A DNA stretch of 64,000 nucleotides from an uncultured bacterium (GCA_905479655.1 CAJQNK010000121.1:14732-78731), one strand, 5' to 3'. Shown: positions 27,588 to 42,329, counted from the first letter of the stretch. Made by a program: numbers and translations. Notes: a model not told the origin generated them from the letters alone.

Positions 27588-27766
27588 CCTGACCTTCTCA
27601 CCGGATGTCGTTGCGAGAGGCCGTAGGTGCCTGGAGATGCAAGGCTTGCGACCGAGGGCGACGCAGTCGTACTGTTTGTACGTCGAGGAGCCCGAGCGGA
27701 GCGTAACGTCGCAGATTCAGGTACATACGGTCTCGTAGTAGACAGTTGGTGAGAAGGTCAGGCTAG
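27584..27766 (-). mobile_element. MITE-like element, copy B (183 bp, inverted relative to copy A); its terminal CTAG supplies the stop codon of the HEAT/pseudocaspase gene
   Basis: The reverse complement of 27584..27766 aligns with 13403..13585 with only a handful of mismatches. TIRs CTAGCCTGACCTTCTCACC / GGTGAGAAGGTCAGGCTAG. Confidence 0.75.
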
Positions 27767-30372
27767 TACTTCGACTGACTGCGGCGCCGCGGAGGCAGGG
27801 CCTCGACACCCCGGTTCAGGGCCTGGATCGCGGCCTCCTGGACCTCCGGTGACGGGTCGCCCTTGGCCATCCTCTCCAGGATGCCCCGGACCTCGTCGGT
27901 GTCGGCGAAGGGGCCGAGGGAGAGGGCGGCGAGCCGCCGCACCGAGGGAGCCGGGTCCCGGGCGGCCTCCAGGAGAGCGCCGACGGCCTCCGGGGCGATC
28001 CGCCTCCCCAGGGCTCGGACGGCGTCGGAGCGGACGGCGCTCGAGGGGTCGCGGGCCGCGGTGGCCAGGGCCTCGACGGCCAGGTCGTTGCCGCCCCGGT
28101 GGATCTCTCCGAGCACCTCGGCTGCGCTCCGGCGCGCGACCGGCTCCGCATCCGGCGTCAGGAGCACCTCGGCGACCCGCTCGGCCACCTGGGGATCGTC
28201 CGCGCTCTCGACGAGGCTGTCGACCGCTTCGGCCCGCGCGGTCGGGTCGGGGTCGCCCAGCCCCCGCAGCAGCACGGCCAGGGTCCGCTCGTCCAGGTAG
28301 GCGGCGCTCTTCTGGTAGGTGAGGCCCCGGAGGTAGTCCGACTTCTCCCGCACCTCGTCGGGGGCGGCCTCCTGGGCCAGCAGGGACGGGTCGAAGTCCC
28401 GACTCTCGAGCTGACGCCGGGCCTCGGCGCGGACGTAGGGATCCTCGTCGTCCGCGCGGGCCGAGAGGGCCTCGATCGCCGCCGGGGTACCGATCGCTCC
28501 CAGGGCCGAGACGGCCGCCCGCCGCAGTCCCACGGTCGCTCCCGCGGCAGCCTTCGCCGTCAGCTCCGGCACGGCGGAGGCGGCCCCCAGTTGGCCGAGG
28601 GCCTCGACGGTGGCCACCGCGACCTCCTCCGGAGGATCCGCCAGGAGGAGGTCGCGCAGCAGCGCTTCGGCCTCGGGGCCGCCGAGCCGCCCCAGGGAGG
28701 TGGCGGCCGCGGCGGCGACGGCCGGCCGATCGTCCCCGGTGGCGGCGGTCAGGACCTCGAGCACCACGTCGCGGGCCTCCTCGACGTAGACCCGGCCGAG
28801 GCTCAGAGCCGCGAGCTGGCGAACGTCGGGGTTGGGGTCGGTCAGGACCCGCTGGGCGAGGGCCTCGCTCGCCGCCGCCGACGGACCGAGGCGGCCCACC
28901 GCCGCCGTGGCCTCGCGTCGCACCTCTTCGTCCGGGTGCTCGAGGGAGTCCACGAACACGTCGCGGTCCTCCTGACGGCCGAGGGCGGAGAGCTCCTGGA
29001 GGGCGGCCAGGATCACGGTCGAGGTCTCGCCGTTGCGCCCGACGACGGCGCGCAGGAGCGCCGCGGTCTCCGGGTGTCCCGACACCGCGAGCGAGCGCAC
29101 CGCCGCCCAGCGGACGGACGGGTCCGGGTCCCCCAGCGCGGCGCGCAGGGCGGAGCGGTCCTCGGTTCGGGGGCTCTCGAACCGCGCGATGCGCCCCAGG
29201 GCGCGATTCCGCACGACGGCGGGGACGGTCGCCCCGGCGGCGACCTCCACGAGGGCGTCGCGGGCCGCGGTGGACTCCAGCTGTCCGAGGACCTCGATCG
29301 CCCAGGAGCGCATGCGAACCGCCTCGGGCCCCTCGAGGGCGACCCTCGGAAGGCCGGCTTCCGGGTCCAGGGCGATCTCTCGCAGCAACGCGACGAGGCC
29401 GGGATTGGCGCCCGGCTCCGCGGCGGCGAGGGCGGAGATCCGCTCCATGGTGAGCTGGGCGGACTCGAACGAGATGGCGCCGCGCCACTCGTGCCGGAGG
29501 GCGTCCGGCTCGGCCGTCGCCAGCAACCGGAACTCCGGCGCGGAGCGGGGCACCGTCAGGACGGCGAGGTCGAAGGTCCCGGGACCCTGGACCGCGGAGT
29601 GGGCGAGCGCCGTCGCCGCGGCCTCCCCGGCACCCCCGACCGCCTCGCTGCGGAGCGCCCGGGCCAGGGAGCGGGCGAAGGCGTCGCTGCCCCACAGACC
29701 GGACGCGCCGTCGGGCCTCCGCTCCCGGCGCTCCCTCTCCAGGTCGCAGACCAGGAAGGCGGTCACGGGCGCGCGTCGGCCCTCCTCCTCGAGGCGCTGC
29801 AGCATGGGATGGCGCGATACGAGGGTCCACCAGGCCTTCAGGTCGTCGCCGGCCTTCGACCGCACGCCGTACGGCAGCCGCTGACCGCAGGCCGGCAGGG
29901 TCAGGAGCACCTCCACCGCCGGGATCTCGCCCAGCCAGCTCCCGATCTCCTCGTCGGAGAGCAGGGTCCAGGGGCTCTCGCGGTCGCCGTCGGCCGGGAC
30001 GAAGCGGAGTCCGCGCCCGGTCTCCACCGGCAGGTTGAGATAGAGAACCAACTGGTCACCCGGGCTCGCCTGTCTCAGGAGCTCCCCGAGCGAGCGCGTC
30101 AACGCGCCGCGCGTCGCCTGTCTCGGCCCGAGGTAGGTGACATCGAAGCCGTAGGCGTCCTCGAGGGTCGCGGCCAGGCTCGCACCGCCGTCGCCGGCGC
30201 CGTCCGCGACCAGGGCCAGGTGCGCTCCGGGGGTCTGGGCCGACGGTTCCGAAGCCCTGGCCGTGTCCCGTGGGAGGAGCGCGAGGGCCGCCGGGAGGGC
30301 CAACGCCAGGATCAGCGCTCGGCGGAGGCGGCCGGCGCGACGGTGGGGCGTCACGATGCCGTGGGCTCTCAT
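27763..30372 (-). CDS. Secreted HEAT-repeat (PBS-lyase type) protein with an N-terminal caspase-like domain lacking the catalytic His (pseudocaspase)
   Basis: Signal peptide (ALILALALPAALALL). Caspase-like fold positions 'QLVLYLNLPVETGRG' (His replaced) and 'VLLTLPACGQR' (Cys kept). More than 10 HEAT repeats of the type 'DPDPSVRWAAVRSLAVSG' / 'DPNPDVRQLAALSLG'. Confidence 0.7.
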   Translation of the reverse strand: MRAHGIVTPHRRAGRLRRALILALALPAALALLPRDTARASEPSAQTPGAHLALVADGAGDGGASLAATLEDAYGFDVTYLGPRQATRGALTRSLGELLRQASPGDQLVLYLNLPVETGRGLRFVPADGDRESPWTLLSDEEIGSWLGEIPAVEVLLTLPACGQRLPYGVRSKAGDDLKAWWTLVSRHPMLQRLEEEGRRAPVTAFLVCDLERERRERRPDGASGLWGSDAFARSLARALRSEAVGGAGEAAATALAHSAVQGPGTFDLAVLTVPRSAPEFRLLATAEPDALRHEWRGAISFESAQLTMERISALAAAEPGANPGLVALLREIALDPEAGLPRVALEGPEAVRMRSWAIEVLGQLESTAARDALVEVAAGATVPAVVRNRALGRIARFESPRTEDRSALRAALGDPDPSVRWAAVRSLAVSGHPETAALLRAVVGRNGETSTVILAALQELSALGRQEDRDVFVDSLEHPDEEVRREATAAVGRLGPSAAASEALAQRVLTDPNPDVRQLAALSLGRVYVEEARDVVLEVLTAATGDDRPAVAAAAATSLGRLGGPEAEALLRDLLLADPPEEVAVATVEALGQLGAASAVPELTAKAAAGATVGLRRAAVSALGAIGTPAAIEALSARADDEDPYVRAEARRQLESRDFDPSLLAQEAAPDEVREKSDYLRGLTYQKSAAYLDERTLAVLLRGLGDPDPTARAEAVDSLVESADDPQVAERVAEVLLTPDAEPVARRSAAEVLGEIHRGGNDLAVEALATAARDPSSAVRSDAVRALGRRIAPEAVGALLEAARDPAPSVRRLAALSLGPFADTDEVRGILERMAKGDPSPEVQEAAIQALNRGVEALPPRRRSQSKY

Positions 30373-31559
30373 GGGCAGATCTCCCCCCAGTTGGCCGCCG
30401 TCGTCTCGGGTCGCAGGAGACACAGTTTCGAGACCAGGATCTCGGCCTTGACCTCGCCCGGCAGGCTCGCTCCCAGCTCGAAGAGTGTCTGGAGCTCCTC
30501 GACGATCTGCCGGTCGGTGGCCGACGGCTCGGCTCCCAGGGCCGACGCCTGCTCCCAGTCGTGGAGGGCGACGAAGCAGGCGTTGCGGACCTTCGGGTCG
30601 AGACCGGCCTGGAACTCCAGCTCGAGCAGCAGGCTCCGCAGCTCGGCCAGCGCCGGCCCCTGCACGTCCAGCAGGCCCAGGGAGAGGAGGTTGGTGCCCC
30701 GGACGATCTCGATCGGCGACTGGACGATCTGCCGGTCGGCGGTGAGCTGCGCGAGGAGGATCTTGGTCTTGCCGATGATCTCGCTCACCGACAGCTTGCC
30801 GTCGCCGTTCGCGTCGGCTGCGGGGTCGCGGAGCGTCTGGAGCAGGCTGTAGGTGAAGATGCCGTGACCCAGCTCCGGAAACTCGTAGGCCTCGGCCCGC
30901 GCGGCGCCGAGAACCACGAGGCCCGAACCGATCTGCTCCTCCACCGTCCGTTCGAAGCTCGCCTCGGGGAAGGCGTGGCGGGTGAGCCGCACGTCGCCCT
31001 CTCCGGCGCGGCTCGTGCCCGTGCCCGAGACCACGCTCTCGACGTCCCCGCTGTGGCAGTGGTCGAGGATCAGGACCTTGCGGTCCGCCGGGATGTCGCG
31101 CAGGTACTCCATCAGGTGGCTCAGGCGGATGCCGTCCACCGCGAGCTCGGCGATCGACGCGGTATGAGTGAGCCAGTAGGTGTGCTCGCCGGCGGTCAGG
31201 TCCTGCACCCCGTGGCCGGCGAAGTAGATCAGCACGGTGTCCTGTTGCCGGGCCCTTCTCGCCATTCGCACCAGCTCGCGGACGATGCGCCTGCGGGTCG
31301 CCTCGTCGTCGATCGCCGTCGCCACCTCCCAGCCCTGGTCCTCGAGGAGCTCCGCCATCTGCCGCGCGTCCGGTACCGCGAAGTCGAGCTCCGGCACGCC
31401 CTCGAGCTCCGCGAGGTAGGTGTTGATGCCGATGACCAGCGCGTAGCGCACCGGCGTCAGGTCCTCGGGTTGGGCCCGGACCCCGCTCGTGACGCCGCCG
31501 CCGACCAGGGCGATCGCGACGCCCCAGCGGGCGAGAGCGGAGAGGCGCCCTCGGCTCAC
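30369..31559 (-). CDS. Secreted caspase-domain (peptidase C14, orthocaspase-like) protein; GTG start at 31559
   Basis: Signal peptide (LSALARWGVAIALVGGGVTSGVRAQ). Catalytic dyad motifs 'VLIYFAGHGVQ' and 'VLILDHCHSGD'. 4-bp overlaps with both neighbouring genes. Confidence 0.8.
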   Translation of the reverse strand: MSRGRLSALARWGVAIALVGGGVTSGVRAQPEDLTPVRYALVIGINTYLAELEGVPELDFAVPDARQMAELLEDQGWEVATAIDDEATRRRIVRELVRMARRARQQDTVLIYFAGHGVQDLTAGEHTYWLTHTASIAELAVDGIRLSHLMEYLRDIPADRKVLILDHCHSGDVESVVSGTGTSRAGEGDVRLTRHAFPEASFERTVEEQIGSGLVVLGAARAEAYEFPELGHGIFTYSLLQTLRDPAADANGDGKLSVSEIIGKTKILLAQLTADRQIVQSPIEIVRGTNLLSLGLLDVQGPALAELRSLLLELEFQAGLDPKVRNACFVALHDWEQASALGAEPSATDRQIVEELQTLFELGASLPGEVKAEILVSKLCLLRPETTAANWGEICP

Positions 31560-34500
31560 GGGAGGGACGCCCGGAGGTCGGAGGAGAGGTCGCGCGAGCG
31601 GAGCCGTTCGCGGATCTCCTCCCAGGAGTCCGCGCTCCGGTTCAGCCCCGCGACGACGGCGTCGAAGGTGGCGGCCAGGAGCTCGTCGGTGGCGTAATGG
31701 TAGGCCACCTCCGCCTCGTAGACCGCCACCTCCTCGAGGTCGGTGCCTTCGTCGAGTCCGAAGAGGAGTCGGTAGTCGGCCTCCGCCGCGTCGCCGGCGG
31801 GACCCGGAGGGTAGAGCGAGCGCCACAGGGGCAGATCCACGATCGACTCGGCGTCGCGGGCGGCGCCGCGCGAGACGGCGACCGCGGGCAGTGGCGCCTC
31901 CAGGAGCCGCGCGGCGTCCAGGATGCCCGCGCCGTAGCGCTCCTCGTCCCAGGTCGCGTCGTCGCCGCAGTCCGCGCTCGCGGGGACTTTGTCCCCCCCC
32001 GGCTGCCAGGCCGTCTCGCGGGCCAGGAGCCGGAACGCGCGGGTCAGCTCGCCGGCGTCGCGCAGGACCTCGAAGTCCGGGTCGCCCCGGTGGCGGGCGA
32101 ACCAGAGGGCGGCGACGCCCGCCGTGGAGGAGGTCGCGTAGGTGGTCCCCGTTCCCATCCCCGTGACCCAGTCGTCCCCGTCGATAGTCGCTCGCCAGAC
32201 CGACTCGCCGGTGGCGGCGAAGTCCACCGCCGAGCCCCGGGAGCTATGGGCCCACGGCCGGCAGCCCACGTTGACCGCGGCCACGGCGATCACCGAGTCG
32301 AAGCGCGCCGGCCAGACGACGGTGCGCACGTAGTTGCCGGCGGCCGCGATGATCAGGTAGCCGCGCCGCTCGGCCGTCCGGACGGCCTTCCACAGCCGCC
32401 AGCTCGGCACCCCGCCCATGGCGATCGAGGCCAGGTCGGTGGCGACGCCGACCCGGGAGCGGTCGTCGCCCGCGAGGTCGAGGATGGCCTGGCTCATCCG
32501 CTCGGTGCTGAAGTTGATCACCGAGCTGTTGACCCGCAAGGGCACCAGCCGGGCGCCCCGCGCGACACCGGTGGGGCACTGCCTCTCGCCGTCCTCGTCA
32601 TCGAGCTGACAGCCGCTGGGCGAGACGATGGCGCTGCCGCTCCCGGTACCGTGGGCCGGGTTGTCCAGCGGCCGGTGCTTCACCCGCTCGTCCAGGGGGT
32701 CCTTGCGGTCGCGGGAGTAGTCCCAGCCGACCTCGACCCAGAGGGGGTCGTCGCCCGCGGGGTCGAGCAGCTCGGGGTGCGGCAGGTAGCCGGTGTCGGG
32801 GTGGGCGACGACCACACCCGCGGCCTCGGCGCCCTCCACGGCGCCGTGGGCGCGCAGAGCGGCCCAGGCCTCGGGCACCCGCAGGGTGCGGTGGCTCCAG
32901 AGGACGTCCGCGGCCGCCCGCTCGTCGTCGCCGGCGCCACCCGATCCGCGGGAGCCGGCGGCGTTCGGGTCGGGCGCGCTCTGCGAGCGGGGAATCGCGG
33001 CCTCCAGGACCGGCTCGGCGCGCCGGGCGCCCCACCTCTCCCGCTCGCGGTAGGCCTCCTGGAAGGCGCGTCCGACCGAGATCTCGCCGGCGTTCCCGGA
33101 CCGTTCGGCCGCGGTGCTCAGGACGACGACGGTGGAGTCGCCCGTGCCGGATGCCGCCGCGTCTCGGGCGCCACCGGCCGAGCGCACGCTCTCGGCGGCC
33201 GCCCGGGCCGCCGCCGGGTCGTCGAAGTGGAGGGCCACCCCCTCGCTGGCGACCTCGGACCGGTCGACGCGCACGGCCCGATGGACGACGGCCCAGTCGT
33301 CGACGACGACCGGCGCGCCGTGGCGGGTGAGGCCCTGGGCGGAGAGCCGCAGGAAGCGACCGAGCGCGTCCTCGTCGCCCCGGGTCTCCGGCACCGCCCC
33401 CCGTGCCGCCGGAGGGAGCGCGAAGAAGCCCGGGTCGAGCTCCCGGGTCGCGGCGATCATCTTGTACCGGTCGGTCGAGCTCGCCAGCTCGGGCGGCAGG
33501 AACGTCCTCACGAACACGGTGTCGCTACGGCCGGGCGCGATGGCCTCCCGGACCTGGCCCTGGGGGTAGACGAGCTGGTCGCCGCCGTCGGACCAGAGTC
33601 CCACCACCACCGCCCAGACCTCCCGGTCGGAGCGGTTGGTCAACGTGAGCTGGAGCCGGGTCCCGGGGGTCACGCTCTCCGGCACGGGCTCGCCGTCGGG
33701 ATCGTCGGCGAGGGAGATCTCCAGGTCGACGTCCAGGGCCGAGGCGGGGTTGCCGAGATTGAGCAACGCGTGCCAGCGACCCCAACGGGCGAGCTGCGCC
33801 TCCAGCTGTTCCAGAGCGTCGGGGTGCGCCGCGGGGACGTCCCCGAGGATGTCGAGGTCACGTCCCTCGAGGAGGTAGCGGTCGCCTTCGCGGCGTACCC
33901 GGATCTGCGCATCGACCCGCTCCGCCACCCGCTCCATCGACTCGAAGCCGTCCACGACGGCCTTCAGCGGCTCCAGGCCCGGGTCGTCGCCGACGTGGAC
34001 CGTGACCCGGTCGACCCTCGGGACGATCTCGTCGAGGACGGCCCGGGTGTGGGGTCCGACCGTGCCCTCGAGCACCTCGACCTCGGACTCGAAGGCCGCC
34101 GCCGAGACGACGCGCACGGTGGCGACCGCCGGCACGGAGCCGTCGAACTCGCGGGTGCCCTGCGGAAAGACCCGCAGCTCGGAGCCCGGCGCCACGCCGT
34201 AGGCCCGTCCCGCCGACAGGGTGGCCCGCTCCGTGCCGTCGCCCACCGGCTGGACCGGCACGAAGGCCCGGGGCCGTGCCACCTCCACGCCGAACAGCTC
34301 CTGGTCGATCCCGGTGCCTTCGATCTGGGGCGTCTGCGAGGGGAAGCGCTGGGAGACGTCGGAGCGCACCGGCTCCATGACGTCACGGTAGGTCGCGCCC
34401 GGCGACGCCTTCTGCAGCGCCCGGGCCAGGAACCAGGTCATGGCGCCGTGGCGGCGATCGTCGAACCGCGTCTCGTTCGAGAGCTGGTTGGCGCGACACC

Positions 34501-35179
34501 CCGAGATCAGGACGTAGCCGGCGCCCAGCGCGCGGAAGTCGTCCGGCCCCTCCACCGCGCGGCCCGCCCCGGGGTCCGGCGGCGGTGGCGGGCGCAGGTC
34601 CGGCGGTACCTGGCGCGGCACGGTGCCCGCCTCGGCCGCCCGCGCGGCGCTGCCGGAGTGACAGGAGTCGAGGATGAAGGTCACGTGGGGCGTCTTGGCG
34701 GCCAGCTCGGCCATGAGCCGGTTGATCTCGTCGTCGCGCAGGTCGCGCACGTCGCCTACCCGGGAGTCGTGGGGGACCAGGCTCTCGTCCCAGCCGTCGG
34801 GCTCGTCGCCCGAGTCGTCGAGCATCTGGGAGCCGTGCCCGCTGTAGTGGAGGACGACGACGTCGCCCGCCTCGGTCGGCTCGATGAGGCTCGTGCGGAT
34901 CGCGTCGAGGATGCCCTGCCGGGTCGCCTCGGCGTCGCGCAGGACGCGGACGTTCTCCGGTGGGAAGTCGAAGTCCCCCACCAGGACCGTCCGCATGAGC
35001 TCGACGTCGTTACCGCAGCCGCGCAGGTCCGAGAGTCCGGGCGCGAGGTAGTCGTCGATGCCGATCAGCAAGGCCCGGCGGGCGGCGCCCGCCGCCGGGG
35101 CCAGAGCGAGGAACAGGAGGAGGGTGGTGGCCGCTGCCAGCGCGGTCGGCAGGACGGCGGGTCGGGCTCCCTGGGTCAT
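31556..35179 (-). CDS. Secreted caspase (C14) - subtilisin-like (S8) protease fusion protein
   Basis: Signal peptide. N-terminal caspase motifs 'VVLHYSGHGSQ' and 'FILDSCHSGS'. C-terminal S8 motifs 'HGTGSGSAIVS' (His box) and 'GTGTTYATSSTAGVAAL' (Ser box). Confidence 0.8.
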   Translation of the reverse strand: MTQGARPAVLPTALAAATTLLLFLALAPAAGAARRALLIGIDDYLAPGLSDLRGCGNDVELMRTVLVGDFDFPPENVRVLRDAEATRQGILDAIRTSLIEPTEAGDVVVLHYSGHGSQMLDDSGDEPDGWDESLVPHDSRVGDVRDLRDDEINRLMAELAAKTPHVTFILDSCHSGSAARAAEAGTVPRQVPPDLRPPPPPDPGAGRAVEGPDDFRALGAGYVLISGCRANQLSNETRFDDRRHGAMTWFLARALQKASPGATYRDVMEPVRSDVSQRFPSQTPQIEGTGIDQELFGVEVARPRAFVPVQPVGDGTERATLSAGRAYGVAPGSELRVFPQGTREFDGSVPAVATVRVVSAAAFESEVEVLEGTVGPHTRAVLDEIVPRVDRVTVHVGDDPGLEPLKAVVDGFESMERVAERVDAQIRVRREGDRYLLEGRDLDILGDVPAAHPDALEQLEAQLARWGRWHALLNLGNPASALDVDLEISLADDPDGEPVPESVTPGTRLQLTLTNRSDREVWAVVVGLWSDGGDQLVYPQGQVREAIAPGRSDTVFVRTFLPPELASSTDRYKMIAATRELDPGFFALPPAARGAVPETRGDEDALGRFLRLSAQGLTRHGAPVVVDDWAVVHRAVRVDRSEVASEGVALHFDDPAAARAAAESVRSAGGARDAAASGTGDSTVVVLSTAAERSGNAGEISVGRAFQEAYRERERWGARRAEPVLEAAIPRSQSAPDPNAAGSRGSGGAGDDERAAADVLWSHRTLRVPEAWAALRAHGAVEGAEAAGVVVAHPDTGYLPHPELLDPAGDDPLWVEVGWDYSRDRKDPLDERVKHRPLDNPAHGTGSGSAIVSPSGCQLDDEDGERQCPTGVARGARLVPLRVNSSVINFSTERMSQAILDLAGDDRSRVGVATDLASIAMGGVPSWRLWKAVRTAERRGYLIIAAAGNYVRTVVWPARFDSVIAVAAVNVGCRPWAHSSRGSAVDFAATGESVWRATIDGDDWVTGMGTGTTYATSSTAGVAALWFARHRGDPDFEVLRDAGELTRAFRLLARETAWQPGGDKVPASADCGDDATWDEERYGAGILDAARLLEAPLPAVAVSRGAARDAESIVDLPLWRSLYPPGPAGDAAEADYRLLFGLDEGTDLEEVAVYEAEVAYHYATDELLAATFDAVVAGLNRSADSWEEIRERLRSRDLSSDLRASLP

Positions 35180-35402: not shown

Positions 35403-37178
35403 TCAGACGGTGATCGTCTCGCCCGAGAACGTCGTGAGCGAGAAGCCGGCGAAGCTCTCCTGGTAGATCGCTCTCTCCTCGCGCAGGAGGCGCAGCGCGA
35501 TGGCCTCTCCGAGGAGGTTCCCCTCCCGGTCGTCGGAGCGCCAGTGGATCCCCGACATGTCCCGGCCCCACGTGAGGTTGTAGGCCAGCTTGTTGAGCTC
35601 GCCGCCGAGTGTCAGCTCCGGTCCGTCGACCCCCGTGATGTAGTCGACCAGCGCGGAGCCGTCGGGCGTCGGCTTCTTGGGCGACGGGAACGGCAACGAC
35701 TCGTCGAACCACGCCTTGAGCACCGTGACGCAGGCGCCCGCGGTGACGGCGTGGCCGGCCGGGAACGACGGATGGGTGGGGCAGCCGACCGGGAAGAGCT
35801 GGGGCAACATCCAGGAGCCGTTGTTGATGCTCAGGCGGGCGTTGTTGATGAGCAGGTTGCGGTCGAAAATGGAACCGAGCGTGATCGTGGCGTTCAACAG
35901 GTCCGAGTGGATCGGATGGCTGACCATGCCGGCGAGCGTCGCGTGCACCCGCGCGGCGTACTCCTCCGGGCGGAGGAACCGGTGGACGAACCACTTCTCG
36001 TACCAGCAGGAGCGCTCGGCCTTGTGGGCCTTGCCCAGAAGCTCGGCCAGGTGGGCGGCGCCGAAAGTCCCGAATCCGAGTTGCCGGCCGGAGTTCTGGT
36101 AGGGGTTGGCCTGATCGTAGCCGGACGCTCCGACCAACTGGTTGAGAATCAGGAAGGCCTTGAAGTAGGCCGAGAAGACCATGTCGCGTCCCGCGACGAA
36201 GCCGAGGGCTCGGGGGTCCGTGACGTAGCGGGACTTCGCCCGGCCCGGCGGCGGAGCCGGAGTGCCCCCCGGGAACCCCCGCTGGGACTCGAGCCACTCG
36301 TCGAAGGTGGTCAGGAAGTCGAACTCCCGCTTGCCCACGGTGACGCGCTGGCCGACCGGCGCCCCGTCGTAGCTGAACCCCTGGAGCAGGAACTGGGAGA
36401 CGAGATAGCCGTCCTGTACGCCCGGGTACTCGACGCGGAAGAGGTCGTTGGCGCGGATCTCGCCGGTCACCGGGTCCCGCGGGCCCCGGTAGCCGGAGAA
36501 CGTGGCCAGCTGCTCGCGGGCCTTGACGGCATCGGGGTGGGCCTCGAAGTCCTGGAAGTTGATGTCGCGCAGGATGGCCATCCAGTAGAGCTCGGCCATC
36601 TCGGCCGCGAGCTCGGCCGAGGCGAAGGCGGGCGGCGGGTTGGCGACGCCGATCGCCGGTGAGTCGGGTCCGTCGATGGAGTAGGCCAGGCCGCCGACGG
36701 GGTTCGCCAGACGCGACCCGCCGCCGGCCGGGACGGTCTCGAAGGCCTCGAACGTCCCGGCGGTGACGGCGGCCAGCAGAGCGTCGTAGGCCGCGGGGTC
36801 GACCTGTCCGAGGTCGTCGTGGGGCAGCGTCTTCGAGAAGTTGCCGATCCGGTTGGAGTAGAGCTCCTCGTCGCCGTTGGTCGCGTGCAGGGGCTCGGGC
36901 AGCGCGAGCTCGGCGTCGGCCGCCGCCACGCGGATGGCGTGGGCCTCGAGCTTACGGTCCTGGAGGTTCGCTCCGTGCGGCGGCGCGGGGGCGGTCGACC
37001 TCGGCGCCGCGGCTGCCGGCAGTCGGCCCGCGATCGCCCCGAGAGAGGCGGCGCCGAGCCCGCCGAGAAGACCCCGGCGGCTCAGTTCCGAGTGCTTGTG
37101 GGCCTCGCGACGAGGGTCGATCGACTTCGCATCGTCAGGGTGCGCCAAAGAACGGATGGGCAGATTCGAGTCCTTCAT
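35403..37178 (-). CDS. Tat-secreted vanadium-dependent haloperoxidase-like protein (PAP2 superfamily)
   Basis: Tat motif 'SRRGLLGGLGAASLGAIAG'. 'KWFVHRFLRPEE', 'CPTHPSFPAGHAVTAG', 'RDMSGIHWRSDD' (R-x5-H-x3-D). Confidence 0.8.
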   Translation of the reverse strand: MKDSNLPIRSLAHPDDAKSIDPRREAHKHSELSRRGLLGGLGAASLGAIAGRLPAAAAPRSTAPAPPHGANLQDRKLEAHAIRVAAADAELALPEPLHATNGDEELYSNRIGNFSKTLPHDDLGQVDPAAYDALLAAVTAGTFEAFETVPAGGGSRLANPVGGLAYSIDGPDSPAIGVANPPPAFASAELAAEMAELYWMAILRDINFQDFEAHPDAVKAREQLATFSGYRGPRDPVTGEIRANDLFRVEYPGVQDGYLVSQFLLQGFSYDGAPVGQRVTVGKREFDFLTTFDEWLESQRGFPGGTPAPPPGRAKSRYVTDPRALGFVAGRDMVFSAYFKAFLILNQLVGASGYDQANPYQNSGRQLGFGTFGAAHLAELLGKAHKAERSCWYEKWFVHRFLRPEEYAARVHATLAGMVSHPIHSDLLNATITLGSIFDRNLLINNARLSINNGSWMLPQLFPVGCPTHPSFPAGHAVTAGACVTVLKAWFDESLPFPSPKKPTPDGSALVDYITGVDGPELTLGGELNKLAYNLTWGRDMSGIHWRSDDREGNLLGEAIALRLLREERAIYQESFAGFSLTTFSGETITV

Positions 37179-37417: not shown

Positions 37418-39553
37418 CTACGAACCGGGCGCGGTCGCCGCGAGCGCGCGCAGGAGCTCCGGGAGCTCGCCGGCGTCCTGGAAGCGGTCTTCGGGGCGCT
37501 TCGCGAGGAGGCGGCCCAGCGCCTCGTCCAGCCCGGGCGGCGCAGGCTGCCCACCGGGCAGGCGGAGTGGCGTCGGGTCGTCGTGGAGGACCTGGTAGAG
37601 GATGGCGTAGCGGCCCGGGCCCGAGAACGGCAGGTCCCCGGAGAGCATCTGGTAGAGCAGGACTCCCAGGGACCAGAGGTCGCTGGTCGGGGCCGCTACG
37701 CGCCCCCGGATCTGTTCGGGAGACATGTAGGCCGGGGTCCCGAGGCTCGCGTCGGCTTGTGTGATGCGGGACTCCTCCGCCATGAGCGCCAAACCGAAGT
37801 CGACGATGACGGGCCGGTCCTCCGACCGGAGGATGATGTTCGACGGCTTGATGTCCCGATGGACGATGCCGGCGCGGTGCGCCGCGTCCAGCGCCTCGGC
37901 GATCCGCGCGGCGATGGTCAGCGCACGGCCGGCGGGCAGGGGGCCGCCCTCCAGCACCTTGTTGAGGTCCCGGCCCTCGTAGTACGGGATCACCAGGAAC
38001 ATCCGACCGTCGGCCGTCTCTCCCAGGTCGTGGATGGCGCAGAGCCCCGGATGACCCAGGCGCGAGGCGGCCATCGCCTCCCGCAGCAGGCGGGTCCGCG
38101 CGAGCTCGTCCGGGGCGGGGGTGGGGGCCAGGAATTTGAGGGCGACGGTGCGCTGGAGGTGGAGGTCGCGCGCCAGGAAGACCTCGCCCATGCCGCCTCC
38201 GCCGAGGCGCTCGACGATTTCGTAGCGCGAGAGGCTTCGGCCCAGGATGGTGCCGGAAGGCGCCGACGCCGGCATCGGCGGCCGCTCCACGACGGCGGTC
38301 GGTTCCAGGAAGTCGTCCGCGCTCGCGTGGTGCTGCAGGAGCGACGAGACGAGCCGGTGGAGATCCGGGTCGTCCCCGCACTCGGTCGCCAGGAAGTCGT
38401 CGACCTGGGAGGGCTCCCGCCGGAGGGCCTCGCCGAAGGTCTCGCGCGCCTTGTCCCACAGGCGCCGCTCGGTCGAGGAGTCGGTTGGGGAGGGTGCCGC
38501 CGGGCCGCCTCGTTGGCGGAGGAAGTCCCGGAGGAAGCGGTGGCTCACGGCCAGAGTGCCGTCCTCCAGGCGCCGCAGGAGGCCCAGCGCCTCGAGCCTC
38601 CGGGGGCCCGCGCCGAATCCCTCCCCCGCGCCCCCTCGGGGGTCGTGGGTGAGTCTCTCCTCCTCTTGCTCCGAGAGTGGCCTCCCGCCGCGCGAGAGCT
38701 CGACCAGGAGCTCGCGCTCGCTCTCGGCGAGCAGGTCGAAGTCCACCGTGAACAGGTACTGAACCATCGGCTCGCTGTCCACCGCCTCGATGGCCTTCGA
38801 CAGGTCACCCAACTGCGAGAGCCGCTTCGCCAGGAGCTGGAGGAGATAGGGATGGCCGGCGCAGACGTCCGCCACCTCTTCGGCGAGCTCGGCGGACCAG
38901 TCCGGGCGGTCGCGGGCTCGCCGAGTCTGGAGGACGCACTCGACGGCGGCGACTCGTTCCAGCCCCGCGAGGTAGACGGGGGGGCCGAAGCCGTGGAGGA
39001 AGGGGGAGGTGGCGCTCCGCTGGTGGCGCAGCTCCCACAGCCGCACGGTCGAGGCCATGACGGTCCGGAGGTGGGAGCCTCCATGGATCAGCTTGCGGAG
39101 CTTCGGGAGCAGGCCGGCCTCGCGCTGCGAGACCTCGAGCAGGACCTCCGGCTCATCGATCAGCAGGAGCAACCGCCGATCCAGCCGGGCGACCTGCCGG
39201 GTCAGCCGGCGGAGGCAGTGGAACAGGTCGTCGTCGAGAACGTCGTCGATGCCGATCCCGAGCTCCGCCAGGTCTTCCTCCGCGTCCAGCAGCGCCTCGC
39301 GGACCTCCTGGTGGAGATCGGCCAGGTCGGTCGCGCCCTCCAGGTTCCAGAACAGCGGCAGATAGGGGAGACCGGGACGCTGCCGGGCGAGGTGCTCGAG
39401 CTGGCGCAGGAAGGAGGTCTTGCCGATCCGGCGCGAGCCCAGGACCCAGACCGCGTCGCTCATGTCCTCCATCGTCTCCGCCAGCTCGGCGTCCCGACCG
39501 TAGAAGGACTCCCCCCGGACCCACTGCCCGACGACGAACGGTGACGGGCTCAC
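37418..39553 (-). CDS. STAND/AAA_16-type ATPase fused to a C-terminal Ser/Thr protein kinase; GTG start at 39553 overlapping the upstream stop
   Basis: 'FYGRDAELAE...VLGSRRIGKTSFL' (Walker A), 'LLLIDEPE' (Walker B). Kinase 'RYEIVERLGGGGMGEVFLA...ALK', 'HRDIKPSNIIL', 'DFG', 'GTPAYMSPE'. Confidence 0.8.
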   Translation of the reverse strand: MSPSPFVVGQWVRGESFYGRDAELAETMEDMSDAVWVLGSRRIGKTSFLRQLEHLARQRPGLPYLPLFWNLEGATDLADLHQEVREALLDAEEDLAELGIGIDDVLDDDLFHCLRRLTRQVARLDRRLLLLIDEPEVLLEVSQREAGLLPKLRKLIHGGSHLRTVMASTVRLWELRHQRSATSPFLHGFGPPVYLAGLERVAAVECVLQTRRARDRPDWSAELAEEVADVCAGHPYLLQLLAKRLSQLGDLSKAIEAVDSEPMVQYLFTVDFDLLAESERELLVELSRGGRPLSEQEEERLTHDPRGGAGEGFGAGPRRLEALGLLRRLEDGTLAVSHRFLRDFLRQRGGPAAPSPTDSSTERRLWDKARETFGEALRREPSQVDDFLATECGDDPDLHRLVSSLLQHHASADDFLEPTAVVERPPMPASAPSGTILGRSLSRYEIVERLGGGGMGEVFLARDLHLQRTVALKFLAPTPAPDELARTRLLREAMAASRLGHPGLCAIHDLGETADGRMFLVIPYYEGRDLNKVLEGGPLPAGRALTIAARIAEALDAAHRAGIVHRDIKPSNIILRSEDRPVIVDFGLALMAEESRITQADASLGTPAYMSPEQIRGRVAAPTSDLWSLGVLLYQMLSGDLPFSGPGRYAILYQVLHDDPTPLRLPGGQPAPPGLDEALGRLLAKRPEDRFQDAGELPELLRALAATAPGS

Positions 39554-42060
39554 GCCTCGCCCCCGCCCGGCTCGCGCCGGACGGCCTCCAGGTCCTCGAT
39601 CGTTAGCACGCGGCGTCCGAGGCGGTGGCCGCGGTCGACCAGGGCGCGGCACAGACGCTGGATCTCGTAGGGGCGGCCCGAGGTCGCCTCGACGATCCTC
39701 TGCACCACCCGATCATCGACGCGGAAGAGCCCGCGCATCGGCTGGCGGACCAGTCTCTCAGCCTCCGATGCCGGCAGCGGCCGGACCGCGATCCCCTCGA
39801 AGAAGTTGAACCACGGGCTCCCCTCGAGCTCCCAGTCGCGTCGGATCTCGACGCCGGAGACGATCGCTCGCAGGCGTTGCGCGAAGGAGCGCATGAAGAG
39901 GGCGCGGAGCTTCTGGTTGATCCGCGGGTCGTAGCCGTTGAGCTCGTCGATCTCGTCGATGAGCAGGACCAGCCGGGGCTCGCGGTCGGACCGTTCGTCC
40001 AGGCGGCGGAGGACCGCTCGGAGGTCGGTGACGAGGTCCGTGTGGCCGTACCCCGGGTCCGAGGGCGGGTGGCACGGCGCCAGCCCCTCGAGCGTCGGGC
40101 CGAGCTGGTGGAAGACCTCCGCCGCCAGGGTGGCGAAGAGCCGCTCCCCCGGCGTCCCCTGCAGGTCCACGTAGACCGGATGGAAAAGGTACTCTGGATC
40201 GTCGATCTCCCGGAGCCGCTCCCGCAGGTGGTGCTGGATCGAGGTCTTGCCGATCCTCCTCTCCCCGTGGAGCAGGAGACTGTTGTTCGGCACCGCGGCC
40301 ACCACCTCCCGGATCAGATCCTCGCGACCGAAGAACTGCTCGCGGCCGAAGACCGGGGCTCCCGCGACGTACGGGTTGGGCCGGCGAGCCAGCGCCCGCG
40401 CCTCCCGCCGGCGACGAACGGCCAGGCCGAGACCCCCGGTCGCGAGCGAGAGGACGAGGACGCCGCCGAGGATCCAGGGCCGGCGCCACGGCGGGGCGCG
40501 GTACAGGAAGGAGTACTCGGAGACCGCCTCCAGGTCTCCGTCGTCGGCCGCCACGATGCGGTAGGTGGACGCTCCGGCGGCGAGTTCCACGTCGAGGTGG
40601 AACTGGGCGACGAAGACGTCCCCGTGCTGGTCCCCACGGGAGGCCACGGGGACCGGTTCGCCGCGCGGGTCCAGGGCGGACAGTCGCACGGGGCCCTCGT
40701 CGATCACCACGCCGACGATCCGCTCGGCGGGGTGGTCGACGACCTGCCGGACCGAGCCGTCCTCCATCGCCGCGCGGAGGTCGGTGAAGCGGATCGCCGG
40801 CGGCAGGTTGCCGTCGCCTCCCCCGTGGCGCACGAGCCTTCGGGCGATGCCGCGGTACGCGGTGGCGAGCTGGGCGATGGCCCGGGTGTCGTCCGGGTCG
40901 ATGGCCAGAGCGAGATTCACCGCGGCGAGCGCCGCGTCGTGGTCACCCGCGGCGAGCGCGACGGCGGCGGAGTCGACGAGGCGGTCGAGCTCGACCCGGC
41001 GCATCGCCGTCTGCCGTCGCTCGCTCTCCGCCTCCACCAGGGATCGACGCAGCGCAACGGCCTCCTCGTGATCCGGCTCGACCGCCAGGATGCCGCGCAG
41101 GAGATCCAGGGCCGCCGCCGGGCGCCCGTCCCGCGCGGCCGAGCGCGCGGCGTCGAGCCGATCCTCGATCATCGGAGCCGGGTCGGCCGCGGTCGCCTCG
41201 GGTCGATCGTCCCTTCGCTCGGCCGAGATCGCCTCGAGGGCTGTCGCCAGGGGGCCCTCGACGTCGGCTCGGGGGTCGAGAGCCCGGGCCTGCTCGAAAG
41301 CCGCAGCGGCCTCTCGGGGCTTCCCCTCGTCCAGCAGACGACGGCCGTCCCGCGCGAGCTCCGCGGCGGTATCGATGCGCTGCCTCTCGAGCTGTTCCGC
41401 GGCCAGGAGGTCGCGGAGCTCGGTCTCGAGCGCGACGGCGCCGGCGTCCGCTGGTTCGAGCGCGAGGACGTCCGCGAGCTCCGTCAGGGCCTCTTCCACC
41501 CGCCCCTGGTCGCGCAGCGATCGGACCCGGGCCAGGACCTCGGCGGTGATCTCTTCACCCACCTTCCGCTGCGCGCTCTCGATCTCCCGGATGCGCTCCC
41601 GGGCGCGCCCGCGGAACCGCTCGAGCTGCGCCAGGTCCGGCGGGGAGGAGGCGATGGCGCCGAGCCGCTCCTCGGTCTCGAACGCCCGGAGCGCGGCCGC
41701 CGGATCGTCCAGCTCCAGGTAGGCGATACCGAGCTTCAGGTAGGGAAAGTAGGAGGTGAACTGCATTCCGTAGGTCCGCGCGTTCGCGCTGGAGTCGCCC
41801 TTGCGCGCGACCGCCTCGTTGAGCTCTTCGACGGCACCCTCCCACTCCTCCCGCCCGAGTTTCTGCTTCGCTCGCTGGTAGTGGACGTACCAGGTGTCGG
41901 CGGCCGACGGTTGAGACAGGCCCAGGAGGAGCGCGGCGACGAGGGTGAGGAGCGTCCCCCACGACCGACGCCGGGCGCGGCCCCCGGGTCGCGGCCGACC
42001 GAGGCGGACGCCGTACTCGGCTCCCTCTGGGTCGGCGTCGTGTCGCGAGCGGCGGCTCAT
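39550..42060 (-). CDS. Membrane-anchored protein: signal peptide + periplasmic TPR repeats + TM segment + cytoplasmic STAND/AAA_16-type ATPase
   Basis: Signal peptide (LLTLVAALLLGLSQPSAA). TPR-like repeats. TM segment 'ILGGVLVLSLATGGLGLAV'. 'FFGREDLIREV...LLHGERRIGKTS' (Walker A), 'LVLLIDEIDE' (Walker B). Paralogous to the ATPase domain of the downstream kinase gene. Confidence 0.75.
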   Translation of the reverse strand: MSRRSRHDADPEGAEYGVRLGRPRPGGRARRRSWGTLLTLVAALLLGLSQPSAADTWYVHYQRAKQKLGREEWEGAVEELNEAVARKGDSSANARTYGMQFTSYFPYLKLGIAYLELDDPAAALRAFETEERLGAIASSPPDLAQLERFRGRARERIREIESAQRKVGEEITAEVLARVRSLRDQGRVEEALTELADVLALEPADAGAVALETELRDLLAAEQLERQRIDTAAELARDGRRLLDEGKPREAAAAFEQARALDPRADVEGPLATALEAISAERRDDRPEATAADPAPMIEDRLDAARSAARDGRPAAALDLLRGILAVEPDHEEAVALRRSLVEAESERRQTAMRRVELDRLVDSAAVALAAGDHDAALAAVNLALAIDPDDTRAIAQLATAYRGIARRLVRHGGGDGNLPPAIRFTDLRAAMEDGSVRQVVDHPAERIVGVVIDEGPVRLSALDPRGEPVPVASRGDQHGDVFVAQFHLDVELAAGASTYRIVAADDGDLEAVSEYSFLYRAPPWRRPWILGGVLVLSLATGGLGLAVRRRREARALARRPNPYVAGAPVFGREQFFGREDLIREVVAAVPNNSLLLHGERRIGKTSIQHHLRERLREIDDPEYLFHPVYVDLQGTPGERLFATLAAEVFHQLGPTLEGLAPCHPPSDPGYGHTDLVTDLRAVLRRLDERSDREPRLVLLIDEIDELNGYDPRINQKLRALFMRSFAQRLRAIVSGVEIRRDWELEGSPWFNFFEGIAVRPLPASEAERLVRQPMRGLFRVDDRVVQRIVEATSGRPYEIQRLCRALVDRGHRLGRRVLTIEDLEAVRREPGGGEA

Positions 42061-42329
42061 TCGGTGGTTCCGTCGGCCCGACGGTCCTCCCCGTCGGCAT
42101 CGGGTTCGCAGGGGGCCGAGTCGTCTTCCGGCCAGGGGTGAATCCCGTCGTCCGCGCGGCCGTGGGGTAAGTTGACAGCGGTTCGGCCCCCGCATATTCT
42201 CACCGCACTTCGAAGTTTGTCATCTGATTCGAGCCGGGACCCGAAGTCCGGCCCTCCTCCGATCCGCCAGGTTGGGAAGGTCCAGCACGGCCGCGTCGCT
42301 CTCGGCGCCGTCGACCCGGCGGAGACGGA

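Follow-up and report, generated by a model that had tools for sequence, protein, structure and literature searches.

The window examined here is a stretch of 64,000 nucleotides from an uncultured bacterium (GCA_905479655.1 CAJQNK010000121.1:14732-78731), and the gene in question, p1 (27763..30372, stop codon included; positions are counted from the first letter of the window, and all features of p1 and of its two partner genes lie on the minus strand), encodes an 869-residue pseudo-orthocaspase-HEAT protein. An earlier note, made from the sequence of the window alone, had placed a gene at these positions, and the gene is genuine: the open reading frame begins with ATG and its product exactly matches the public called protein P0001. 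As that note also had it, p1 lies immediately downstream of two caspase genes, p2 (30369..31559) and p3 (31556..35179), which share its strand and have overlapping ends. From the N- to the C-terminus the p1 protein consists of a signal-peptide-like segment (residues 1-40, 30253..30372), a degenerate C14 (metacaspase/orthocaspase-like) caspase-fold domain of ~240 residues (48-288, 29509..30231), a helical linker (289-345, 29338..29508) and a solenoid of ~16 HEAT repeats (348-856, 27805..29331); the full-length AlphaFold2 (AF2) model has a predicted local distance difference test score (pLDDT) of 86.3 and a predicted template modelling score (pTM) of 0.72.

The signal-peptide-like segment, read from the sequence, combines a basic n-region (RRAGRLRR), a hydrophobic core (ALILALALPAALALL) and an ARA motif preceding SEP, and is built in the full-length model as a lone helix (residues 9-32) followed by a low-confidence stretch. 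The N-termini of all p1 relatives are similarly basic, hydrophobic and signal-peptide-like, and p1 is likely to be exported, either to the periplasm or as a secreted protein. The linker that joins the pseudo-caspase domain to the solenoid contains three helices in the model (289-297, 302-318 and 324-335) and is conserved within the family; Pfam returns nothing useful for it or for the C-terminus of p2.

The solenoid itself, which occupies the C-terminal two-thirds of p1, was matched by Pfam over ~residues 385-860 (HEAT_2 1.9e-59, HEAT 4.7e-27, HEAT_PBS 8.3e-8), and in the full-length model ~32 helices form the ~16 repeats, bearing out the more than ten repeats of PBS-lyase type that had been read from the sequence. 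Beyond the caspase-fold domain Pfam matches nothing in p1 but HEAT repeats, with no p10 domain. The best Foldseek matches of the full-length model in the PDB (alphaRep proteins, the PP2A A subunit, CAND1 and importin-beta) are classic scaffolds. A function as a phycobilisome lyase or NblB protein was rejected, the NCBIfam equivalogs scoring far below their cut-offs (NblB 72 against 300 bits, CpcE 32 against 330, CpcF 28 against 220).

A diverged C14 caspase fold in p1

With p1 as the query, Pfam leaves residues 1-380 without any match and the C14 family (PF00656) misses its gathering threshold, NCBIfam gives no C14 match and only sub-threshold matches of HEAT type, and phmmer with the single N-domain sequence finds no match in the PDB. 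Pairwise BLASTP of p1 with p2 gives nothing meaningful and with p3 an insignificant E of 0.087, the best of the two, yet the parts aligned to p3 are exactly the regions of the catalytic His and Cys. The missing C14 matches and the insignificant pairwise scores would suit a caspase likeness that arose by chance, or from a generic Rossmann-like α/β architecture, instead of C14 homology; the profile and structure comparisons leave this explanation with a negligible probability. In a word-indexed search the N-domain on its own retrieved no homologue and the family alignment only two short members, so that the family was found only by an exhaustive phmmer search of p1 residues 1-380 against 1.84 billion cluster representatives. 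From it a 29-sequence alignment of the N-terminal domain (A1) was built, together with a second alignment (A3) of the caspase domains of the neighbouring proteins and their orthologues.

The alignment of the domain with those of its two neighbours, proposed as a check by the earlier note, pairs A1 and A3 in hhalign with a probability of 98.6% and an E of 1.3e-15 over 209 columns, which cover the entire domain and so argue against a chance likeness. Profile searches of PDB sequences with A1 reach Arabidopsis metacaspase-4 (AtMC4, 1.3e-5) and yeast Yca1 (1.1e-3), and these alignments extend to, and stop precisely at, the 'HYS|GHG' motif of the catalytic His. The caspase-like fold that had been proposed for the N-terminal domain is present in its AF2 model (pLDDT 87.4, pTM 0.87): the best 50 Foldseek matches in the PDB are exclusively of caspase fold, with E values down to 7.4e-7 (GSU0716) and template modelling scores of ~0.5-0.6, and include Geobacter GSU0716, Yca1, a Candida metacaspase, MALT1, AtMC4, AtMC9 and TbMCA2. 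PF00656 is weakly reached by 4 of the 29 aligned relatives (best E=3.8e-4), again contrary to a chance likeness, and the tail of the phmmer search contains three dyad-intact caspases with GHG and DxC motifs (E 1.6e-6 to 8.7e-4). Because profile searches, profile-profile alignment and the AF2/Foldseek comparison agree in their support, the N-terminal domain of p1 is shown to be a diverged C14 (metacaspase/orthocaspase-like) homologue.

Loss of the catalytic dyad and the S1 pocket

The hhalign alignment pairs the family consensus 'lsLPv' with 'faGHGv' of the dyad-intact caspases and 'PsC' with 'LDxC'. In the model, strand 3 (residues 107-113) is followed by L114-P115 and strand 4 (154-160) by A161-C162, and it is at these two sites that the dyad residues canonically lie. 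Pro115 (codon 30028..30030) takes the place of the catalytic His, with 'NLPV' aligned to 'AGHG'; of the 25 full-length relatives on which all residue counts per position are based (alignment A4), 23 have Pro at this position and two have Lys or Arg. The catalytic Cys position is occupied by Cys162 (codon 29887..29889), which lies in LPACGQ (residues 159-164), was correctly predicted to be kept, and is Cys in 25/25 relatives. The residue two positions before it, Pro160, takes the place of the DxC Asp, a residue of the S1 pocket, and is likewise Pro in 23 of the 25.

The surroundings of the dyad have been altered as well. Both glycines of the GHG motif are lost, the loop carrying the other S1 Asp ('ND') is deleted in the p1 family, with an unconserved residue in the column that hhalign aligns to it, and the EF-hand-like Ca-binding loop of p2 (DANGDGKLSVSE) is missing from the pseudo-domain in the A3 and hhalign alignments. 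The acidic S1 pocket is formed by Asp residues equivalent to TbMC2 Asp95 and Asp211 (PMC6426788). p1 accordingly has neither the His-Cys dyad of C14 peptidases (Pro115/Cys162) nor the acidic S1 pocket of C14B (Pro160, 'ND' loop deleted). Since this pocket is dismantled, the suggestion that p1 might act as a decoy is weakened.

The earlier note was right that the catalytic His is gone and wrong about where it had been. It had read YLNLPVETGRG (residues 111-121) with GRG as the equivalent of GHG; in the model GRG (119-121) forms the turn, at Arg120, of a β-hairpin (116-118 and 122-124) that follows strand 3, its columns are variable in the family, and the equivalence was rejected in favour of Pro115. 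An alternative catalytic His was also sought and rejected. No His is conserved anywhere in the domain among the 25 relatives, the best column being 111 (His in 11/25, Tyr in p1), and in one relative, P0051, the first 300 residues contain no His. Judged by these residues, the N-terminal domain of p1 is a catalytically dead (pseudo-)orthocaspase.

The strict invariance of Cys162 is what could be expected if p1 were still a protease, a third active caspase of the operon in which Cys162 is the nucleophile, assisted by an unconventional general base or by none, and the HEAT repeats form a substrate-binding arm. Cyanobacteria are known to have active orthocaspases that carry fused HEAT repeats (Table 2 of PMC7475262). 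Such a non-canonical activity is highly unlikely on the residue pattern because Pro replaces the His in nearly all relatives and Lys or Arg in the remaining two, no other conserved base is present, and the pocket is lost with the DxC Asp, the second S1 Asp loop and both GHG glycines. The retention of Cys162 has in addition another candidate explanation in a second invariant cysteine. Cys209 (codon 29746..29748), at the end of strand 5, is Cys in 25/25 relatives and aligns to the C of 'SGC' in p3 and AtMC4, the metacaspase 'SGC' position. Cys162 and Cys209 are the sole cysteines of the whole protein in 11 of the 25 full-length relatives, P0001 included, and in most of the others the extra cysteines fall within the first 30 residues, in the signal-like segment. 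As the two lie at the C-terminal ends of adjacent parallel strands and are the only invariant cysteines of a protein that is apparently exported, a structural Cys162-Cys209 disulfide is most probably the reason for their retention, in preference to catalysis.

The former active site is also where much of the conservation is found. In the pseudo-domain 14 residues reach a conservation of 90% or more, and seven of them (L114, P115, P126, W135, P160, C162 and C209) lie on the former catalytic sheet edge. That half of the best-conserved residues sit there suggests that the ex-active-site face has been repurposed as a binding surface instead of being left to decay.

Synteny and translational coupling with dyad-intact orthocaspases

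Both paralogs upstream of p1 carry the GHG motif, as had been noted, and both have intact dyads. p2 is a 396-residue orthocaspase with a signal-like N-terminus, a His116/Cys168 dyad (motifs FAGHGV and LDHCHSG) and an EF-hand-like loop (Pfam C14 3e-21), and its start is confirmed by P0083, a called protein of identical sequence. p3 (1207 residues) likewise begins with a signal-like N-terminus, followed by an orthocaspase domain (His115, Cys173; motifs YSGHGS and LDSCHSG; Pfam C14 4.5e-29), a middle region of ~470 residues and an S8 subtilase domain (Pfam S8 9.4e-14). The p3 stop overlaps the GTG start of p2 in GTGA (31556-31559) and the p2 stop overlaps the p1 start in ATGA (30369-30372), arrangements that indicate translational coupling of p3-p2-p1.

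The search of the 1.84 billion representatives returned 36 proteins at E<=1e-3, including the query and the three dyad-intact caspases. The ~33 cluster-representative relatives are mostly 800-840 residues long, share the architecture of p1 and are matched over the whole N-terminal region; P0002, from the Vicinamibacteria, is the sole relative with a taxon name. A search of genome contigs with the single p1 protein found no relative. Eleven genomic contexts were examined, namely the window, nine loci with DNA (L001-L009) and one Joint Genome Institute (JGI) contig listed without DNA. A C14 gene (372-415 residues where complete) lies directly upstream on the same strand in 11/11. The junction between this gene and the p1 homologue is a start/stop overlap in several of the other loci or a gap of at most ~12 nucleotides, and overlaps of GTGA/ATGA type also occur in L001, L003, L005, L006, L007 and L008. 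An S8 subtilase protein adjoins the module in at least 9 of the 11 contexts; in the window and in L002-L006 it is fused to a second caspase domain (divergently oriented in L005), in L008 it is split over two genes, and in L001 and L009 it is truncated where the contig ends. All neighbouring caspases examined have an intact GHG, and DxCxxG is matched in all but L009, to which the strict form of this pattern alone was applied. Both caspase neighbours have signal-like N-termini in every locus.

This arrangement bears on two further readings of p1. In one, the pseudo-caspase is an evolutionary relic that serves as a structural module only, and the HEAT protein has a function unrelated to proteases, for instance as a periplasmic binding or adaptor protein. 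The flanking genes outside the module differ in every locus, so that nothing beyond it is conserved, and most bacterial pseudo-orthocaspases act independently of active ones according to Klemencic et al. (PMC6426788), both of which would suit a relic. An unrelated function is nevertheless unlikely because the C14 gene is directly upstream without exception, and the stop/start overlaps in the window and several other loci, as well as the clustering of conserved residues on the former catalytic face and not in the core alone, run against it.

In the other reading, p1 is mainly a substrate or pro-protein: p2, taken to be Arg/Lys-specific, would cut the basic loop after Cys209 (CDLERERRERRPDG) or the linker, and so release or activate the HEAT module. 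The same strict synteny with a dyad-intact C14 gene would be expected here, a basic loop ('CD.EA.R...RRPE') is conserved right after strand 5 in the closer subfamily, and the pseudo-metacaspase TbMC4, which is processed by TbMC3, provides a precedent (PMC6426788). The loop, however, is deleted in the distant subfamily (P0002, P0065, P0059, P0063 and P0069) and so does not define the family, and cleavage leaves unexplained why a full caspase fold with a conserved ex-active-site face has been retained. We consider it doubtful that this is the principal role of p1, although cleavage is compatible with a scaffold function and does not exclude it.

The origin of the pseudo-domain can be judged from the same loci. 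The family hidden Markov model (HMM) built from A1 scores the adjacent C14 protein of ~390 residues at 27-40 bits in 5/6 loci, in alignments spanning both dyad sites, and at 14 bits in L002, as against 9-24 bits for the C14-S8 proteins. These scores are consistent with duplication of the orthocaspase gene directly upstream, which is the most likely origin of the pseudo-domain.

The partner genes have features of their own. The EF-hand-like loop of p2 (residues 249-260) is canonical and is kept in orthologues as DANGDRKLSLDE and DTNHDGKLSLSE, which suggests regulation by Ca2+ as in metacaspases. The S8 domain of p3 (residues 788-1028, 32096-32818), aligned to subtilisins, keeps the Asp (AHPDTG), the His (HGTGS) and the oxyanion Asn (AAAGN), while the nucleophile Ser of 'GTSMA' is replaced by Thr1013 ('GTTYA', codon 32141-32143). 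The same Ser-to-Thr replacement is found in 9/9 orthologues examined (L001-L006, L008 and L009), and the domain may be a subtilase that naturally uses Thr as its nucleophile or else the second pseudo-protease of the operon. Neither the ~470-residue middle region of p3 (residues 300-770, 32870-34282) nor its C-terminal extension of ~180 residues (1030-1207, 31559-32092) has a Pfam match; the extension is conserved, with motifs LPLW.SLYP and EAEV.YHYA. Membership of the EACC1-associated caspase subfamily was rejected, p2 scoring 98.6 and p3 60.6 bits against a cut-off of 140 and all three proteins of the operon having signal-like N-termini. A PADLOC scan gave generic caspase and HEAT domain matches only, with no assignment to a defence system, and a scan for promoters and terminators at 72% GC gave no informative signal.

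Several further genes lie close to the module in the window or at single loci. Directly upstream of p3, a gene on the minus strand (35403-37178) encodes a 591-residue protein that has a twin-arginine-like N-terminus (SRRGLLGGLGAASLGA) and weakly matches the PAP2 superfamily; it may be an exported acid-phosphatase- or haloperoxidase-like enzyme. Further upstream, also on the minus strand, are genes for a STAND-like fusion of an AAA_16 ATPase to a Ser/Thr kinase (37418-39652), which has strong generic PADLOC kinase matches, and for a protein with AAA_16 and TPR domains (39550-42195); these two are not conserved beside the module elsewhere and are probably unrelated to it. In L001, a metagenome-assembled genome of the Vicinamibacteria that belongs to the more distant subfamily, a TPR-CHAT gene lies inside the cluster (L001:1832-4384), CHAT being another caspase-clan protease. 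Directly downstream of the pseudo-caspase-HEAT gene in L001 (8069-9634) and L008 (7293-8735) is a gene for an exported protein of 480-521 residues with no known domain, followed in L001 by one further C14 gene; Pfam returned nothing useful for these extra downstream genes. In L003, and in no other locus, an effector-associated domain 1 (EAD1) fused to a trypsin-like protease is encoded a few kb downstream of the module (L003:9909-11925). Such fusions are hallmarks of the conflict systems that Kaur and colleagues reportedly described in 2020.

Proposed role and relation to known pseudo-proteases

We favour a role for p1, with a probability of roughly 0.6, as a non-catalytic scaffold, regulator or substrate adaptor for the proteases of its operon, paralogous to the adjacent orthocaspase. 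The upstream orthocaspase gene would have been duplicated to give the copy that became the N-terminal domain, and the copy would then have lost the general-base His (now Pro115), the GHG glycines, both S1 acidic residues and the Ca-binding loop. Production of p1 would be in fixed stoichiometry with that of the two dyad-intact orthocaspases, all three being encoded in a single translationally coupled operon. p1 would bind these enzymes, chiefly the adjacent p2, and as a non-catalytic subunit would position, activate or restrain the protease, while the rigid HEAT solenoid could serve to hold either substrates or the partner that bears the subtilase. The evidence is consistent with a role as regulator or scaffold: the synteny is strict in all 11 contexts, the genes are coupled, the pseudo-domain is closest to the adjacent C14 protein, and the HEAT part resembles the PP2A A subunit. 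Heterodimerization with the adjacent orthocaspase in the manner of cFLIP is plausible by analogy.

Several points weigh against this role. Metacaspase-like domains are usually monomeric, and heterodimerization of the cFLIP type is not to be expected of them by default. Synteny indicates a functional link without giving its direction, and p1 could equally be a substrate or a product of the proteases. The family is rare (~33 among the 1.84 billion representatives) and comes from metagenome-assembled contigs only, and N-terminal sequence features are the sole basis on which p1 was assigned to the exported proteins.

A fuller version of the same model, which we put forward as quite tentative, would make the operon the source of an extracytoplasmic multi-protease holoenzyme. 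p1, following a design like that of Raptor, the PP2A A subunit or cFLIP, would dock on p2 through its ex-active-site face and switch it on or direct it to substrates, and the third subunit would contribute a caspase together with a Thr-nucleophile or dead subtilase.

Bacterial pseudo-orthocaspases have been surveyed by Klemencic, Asplund-Samuelsson, Dolinar & Funk (2019), who identified 862 of them with the dyads Tyr-Ser, Tyr-Asn, Tyr-Gly, Tyr-Ala, Phe-Ser (with TPR), Gln-Cys (with trypsin) and His-Ala (PMC6426788). The acidic S1 pocket is conserved in these variants, and they were suggested to be independent of active orthocaspases (PMC6426788). Like them, p1 has a caspase fold of p20 type without p10, a substituted dyad, a signal-like N-terminus and an extra C-terminal domain, and is conserved as a family, hence presumably functional though inactive. 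Unlike them, it has a Pro/Cys dyad and C-terminal HEAT repeats, belongs to none of the YS, YN, YG, YA, FS-TPR, QC-trypsin and HA clades, and has lost the acidic pocket that the described variants keep. Its domain also lies beyond the reach of the Pfam model, so that an HMM survey of such a type would miss it, and it is found in a fixed operon with dyad-intact orthocaspases, whereas the described variants were argued to act mostly independently. The sole p1 relative with a taxon name is from the Vicinamibacteria, and not from the cyanobacteria or purple alphaproteobacteria. The word 'HEAT' does not occur in PMC6426788. HEAT accessory domains are, on the other hand, listed for cyanobacterial orthocaspases in Table 2 of PMC7475262, where an N-terminal p20-like domain is followed, as in p1, by repeats of HEAT_2, HEAT_EZ or PBS-lyase type. 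That table gives them as accessory domains of orthocaspases in general and describes no inactive Pro/Cys form, whereas p1 is dead, apparently exported and paired in an operon with separate dyad-intact enzymes. In the literature searched there was no description of a Pro/Cys dyad with a dismantled pocket or of a caspase domain invisible to Pfam, nor of an exported form or of an operon that constantly combines such a domain with two dyad-intact caspases and an unusual subtilase.

Pseudo-proteases that work with active paralogues include TbMC4 with TbMC3 and cFLIP with caspase-8 (PMC6426788). In the pair of cFLIP(L) and caspase-8, as proposed for p1, a dead paralogue produced by gene duplication is encoded beside the active caspase and is proposed to modulate it. 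The differences are considerable: cFLIP has tandem death effector domains (DEDs), has lost both His and Cys, is cytosolic and uses the caspase dimer interface, whereas p1 lacks DEDs, still has the Cys, is metacaspase-like in its fold and apparently exported, and bears a large HEAT solenoid. Pfam finds neither a DED nor any other death-fold match in p1.

The combination of a caspase fold with an α-solenoid recurs in eukaryotic proteins. In Raptor a HEAT/ARM solenoid comes after the caspase-like RNC domain of the N-terminus; separase combines its helical solenoid with two further domains, one a pseudo-protease and the other caspase-like and active. The logic that we propose for p1, an inactive caspase fold joined to an α-solenoid as a substrate-recruiting scaffold, is the same, but the homology evidence does not extend beyond shared folds, and separase holds its active and pseudo domains in one chain. 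Pfam finds no Raptor_N (PF14538) or WD40 match in p1, and both Raptor and separase are absent from the best 50 Foldseek matches of either model. The PP2A A subunit (PR65) and HEAT proteins of PBS-lyase type share with p1 a solenoid of 15-16 HEAT repeats and are among its best full-length structural matches; the likeness is that of generic repeats, and p1 has no phosphatase or phycobilisome context. The Csp proteins of Clostridioides difficile, which are encoded at one locus, belong to a different protease clan (S8), are spore-specific and have no HEAT domain. They represent a comparable bacterial proteolytic signalling system, in which the two subtilisin-family pseudoproteases CspA and CspC work with the active family member CspB (PMC7200643). 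By these comparisons cFLIP, Raptor, separase, the PP2A A subunit and the Csp pseudoproteases are functional analogies of p1 and not members of its family.

Control of active paralogues by pseudo-proteases is a familiar phenomenon in animals (cFLIP) and in a few microbes (for instance TbMC4 and CspA/CspC). The p1 family forms an exception to the view that bacterial pseudo-orthocaspases act independently (PMC6426788), in that the dead copy always stands directly behind a dyad-intact relative, with signs of translational coupling. It is too diverged for the Pfam caspase model, and HMM surveys would overlook other families of its kind. Were the pseudo-caspase a structural relic, the consequence would be a routine re-annotation from 'HEAT repeat protein' to 'pseudo-orthocaspase-HEAT protein'. 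If the partnership holds, it would provide a simple two- or three-gene system in which to follow a duplicated protease becoming a regulator or scaffold, and the same system would inform on the function of exported orthocaspases and on the activity of the Ser-to-Thr subtilase. Were the holoenzyme model also true, the operon would be the bacterial equivalent of a caspase regulated by its dead paralogue, and a tractable system for studying how pseudo-proteases evolve from tandem duplicates.

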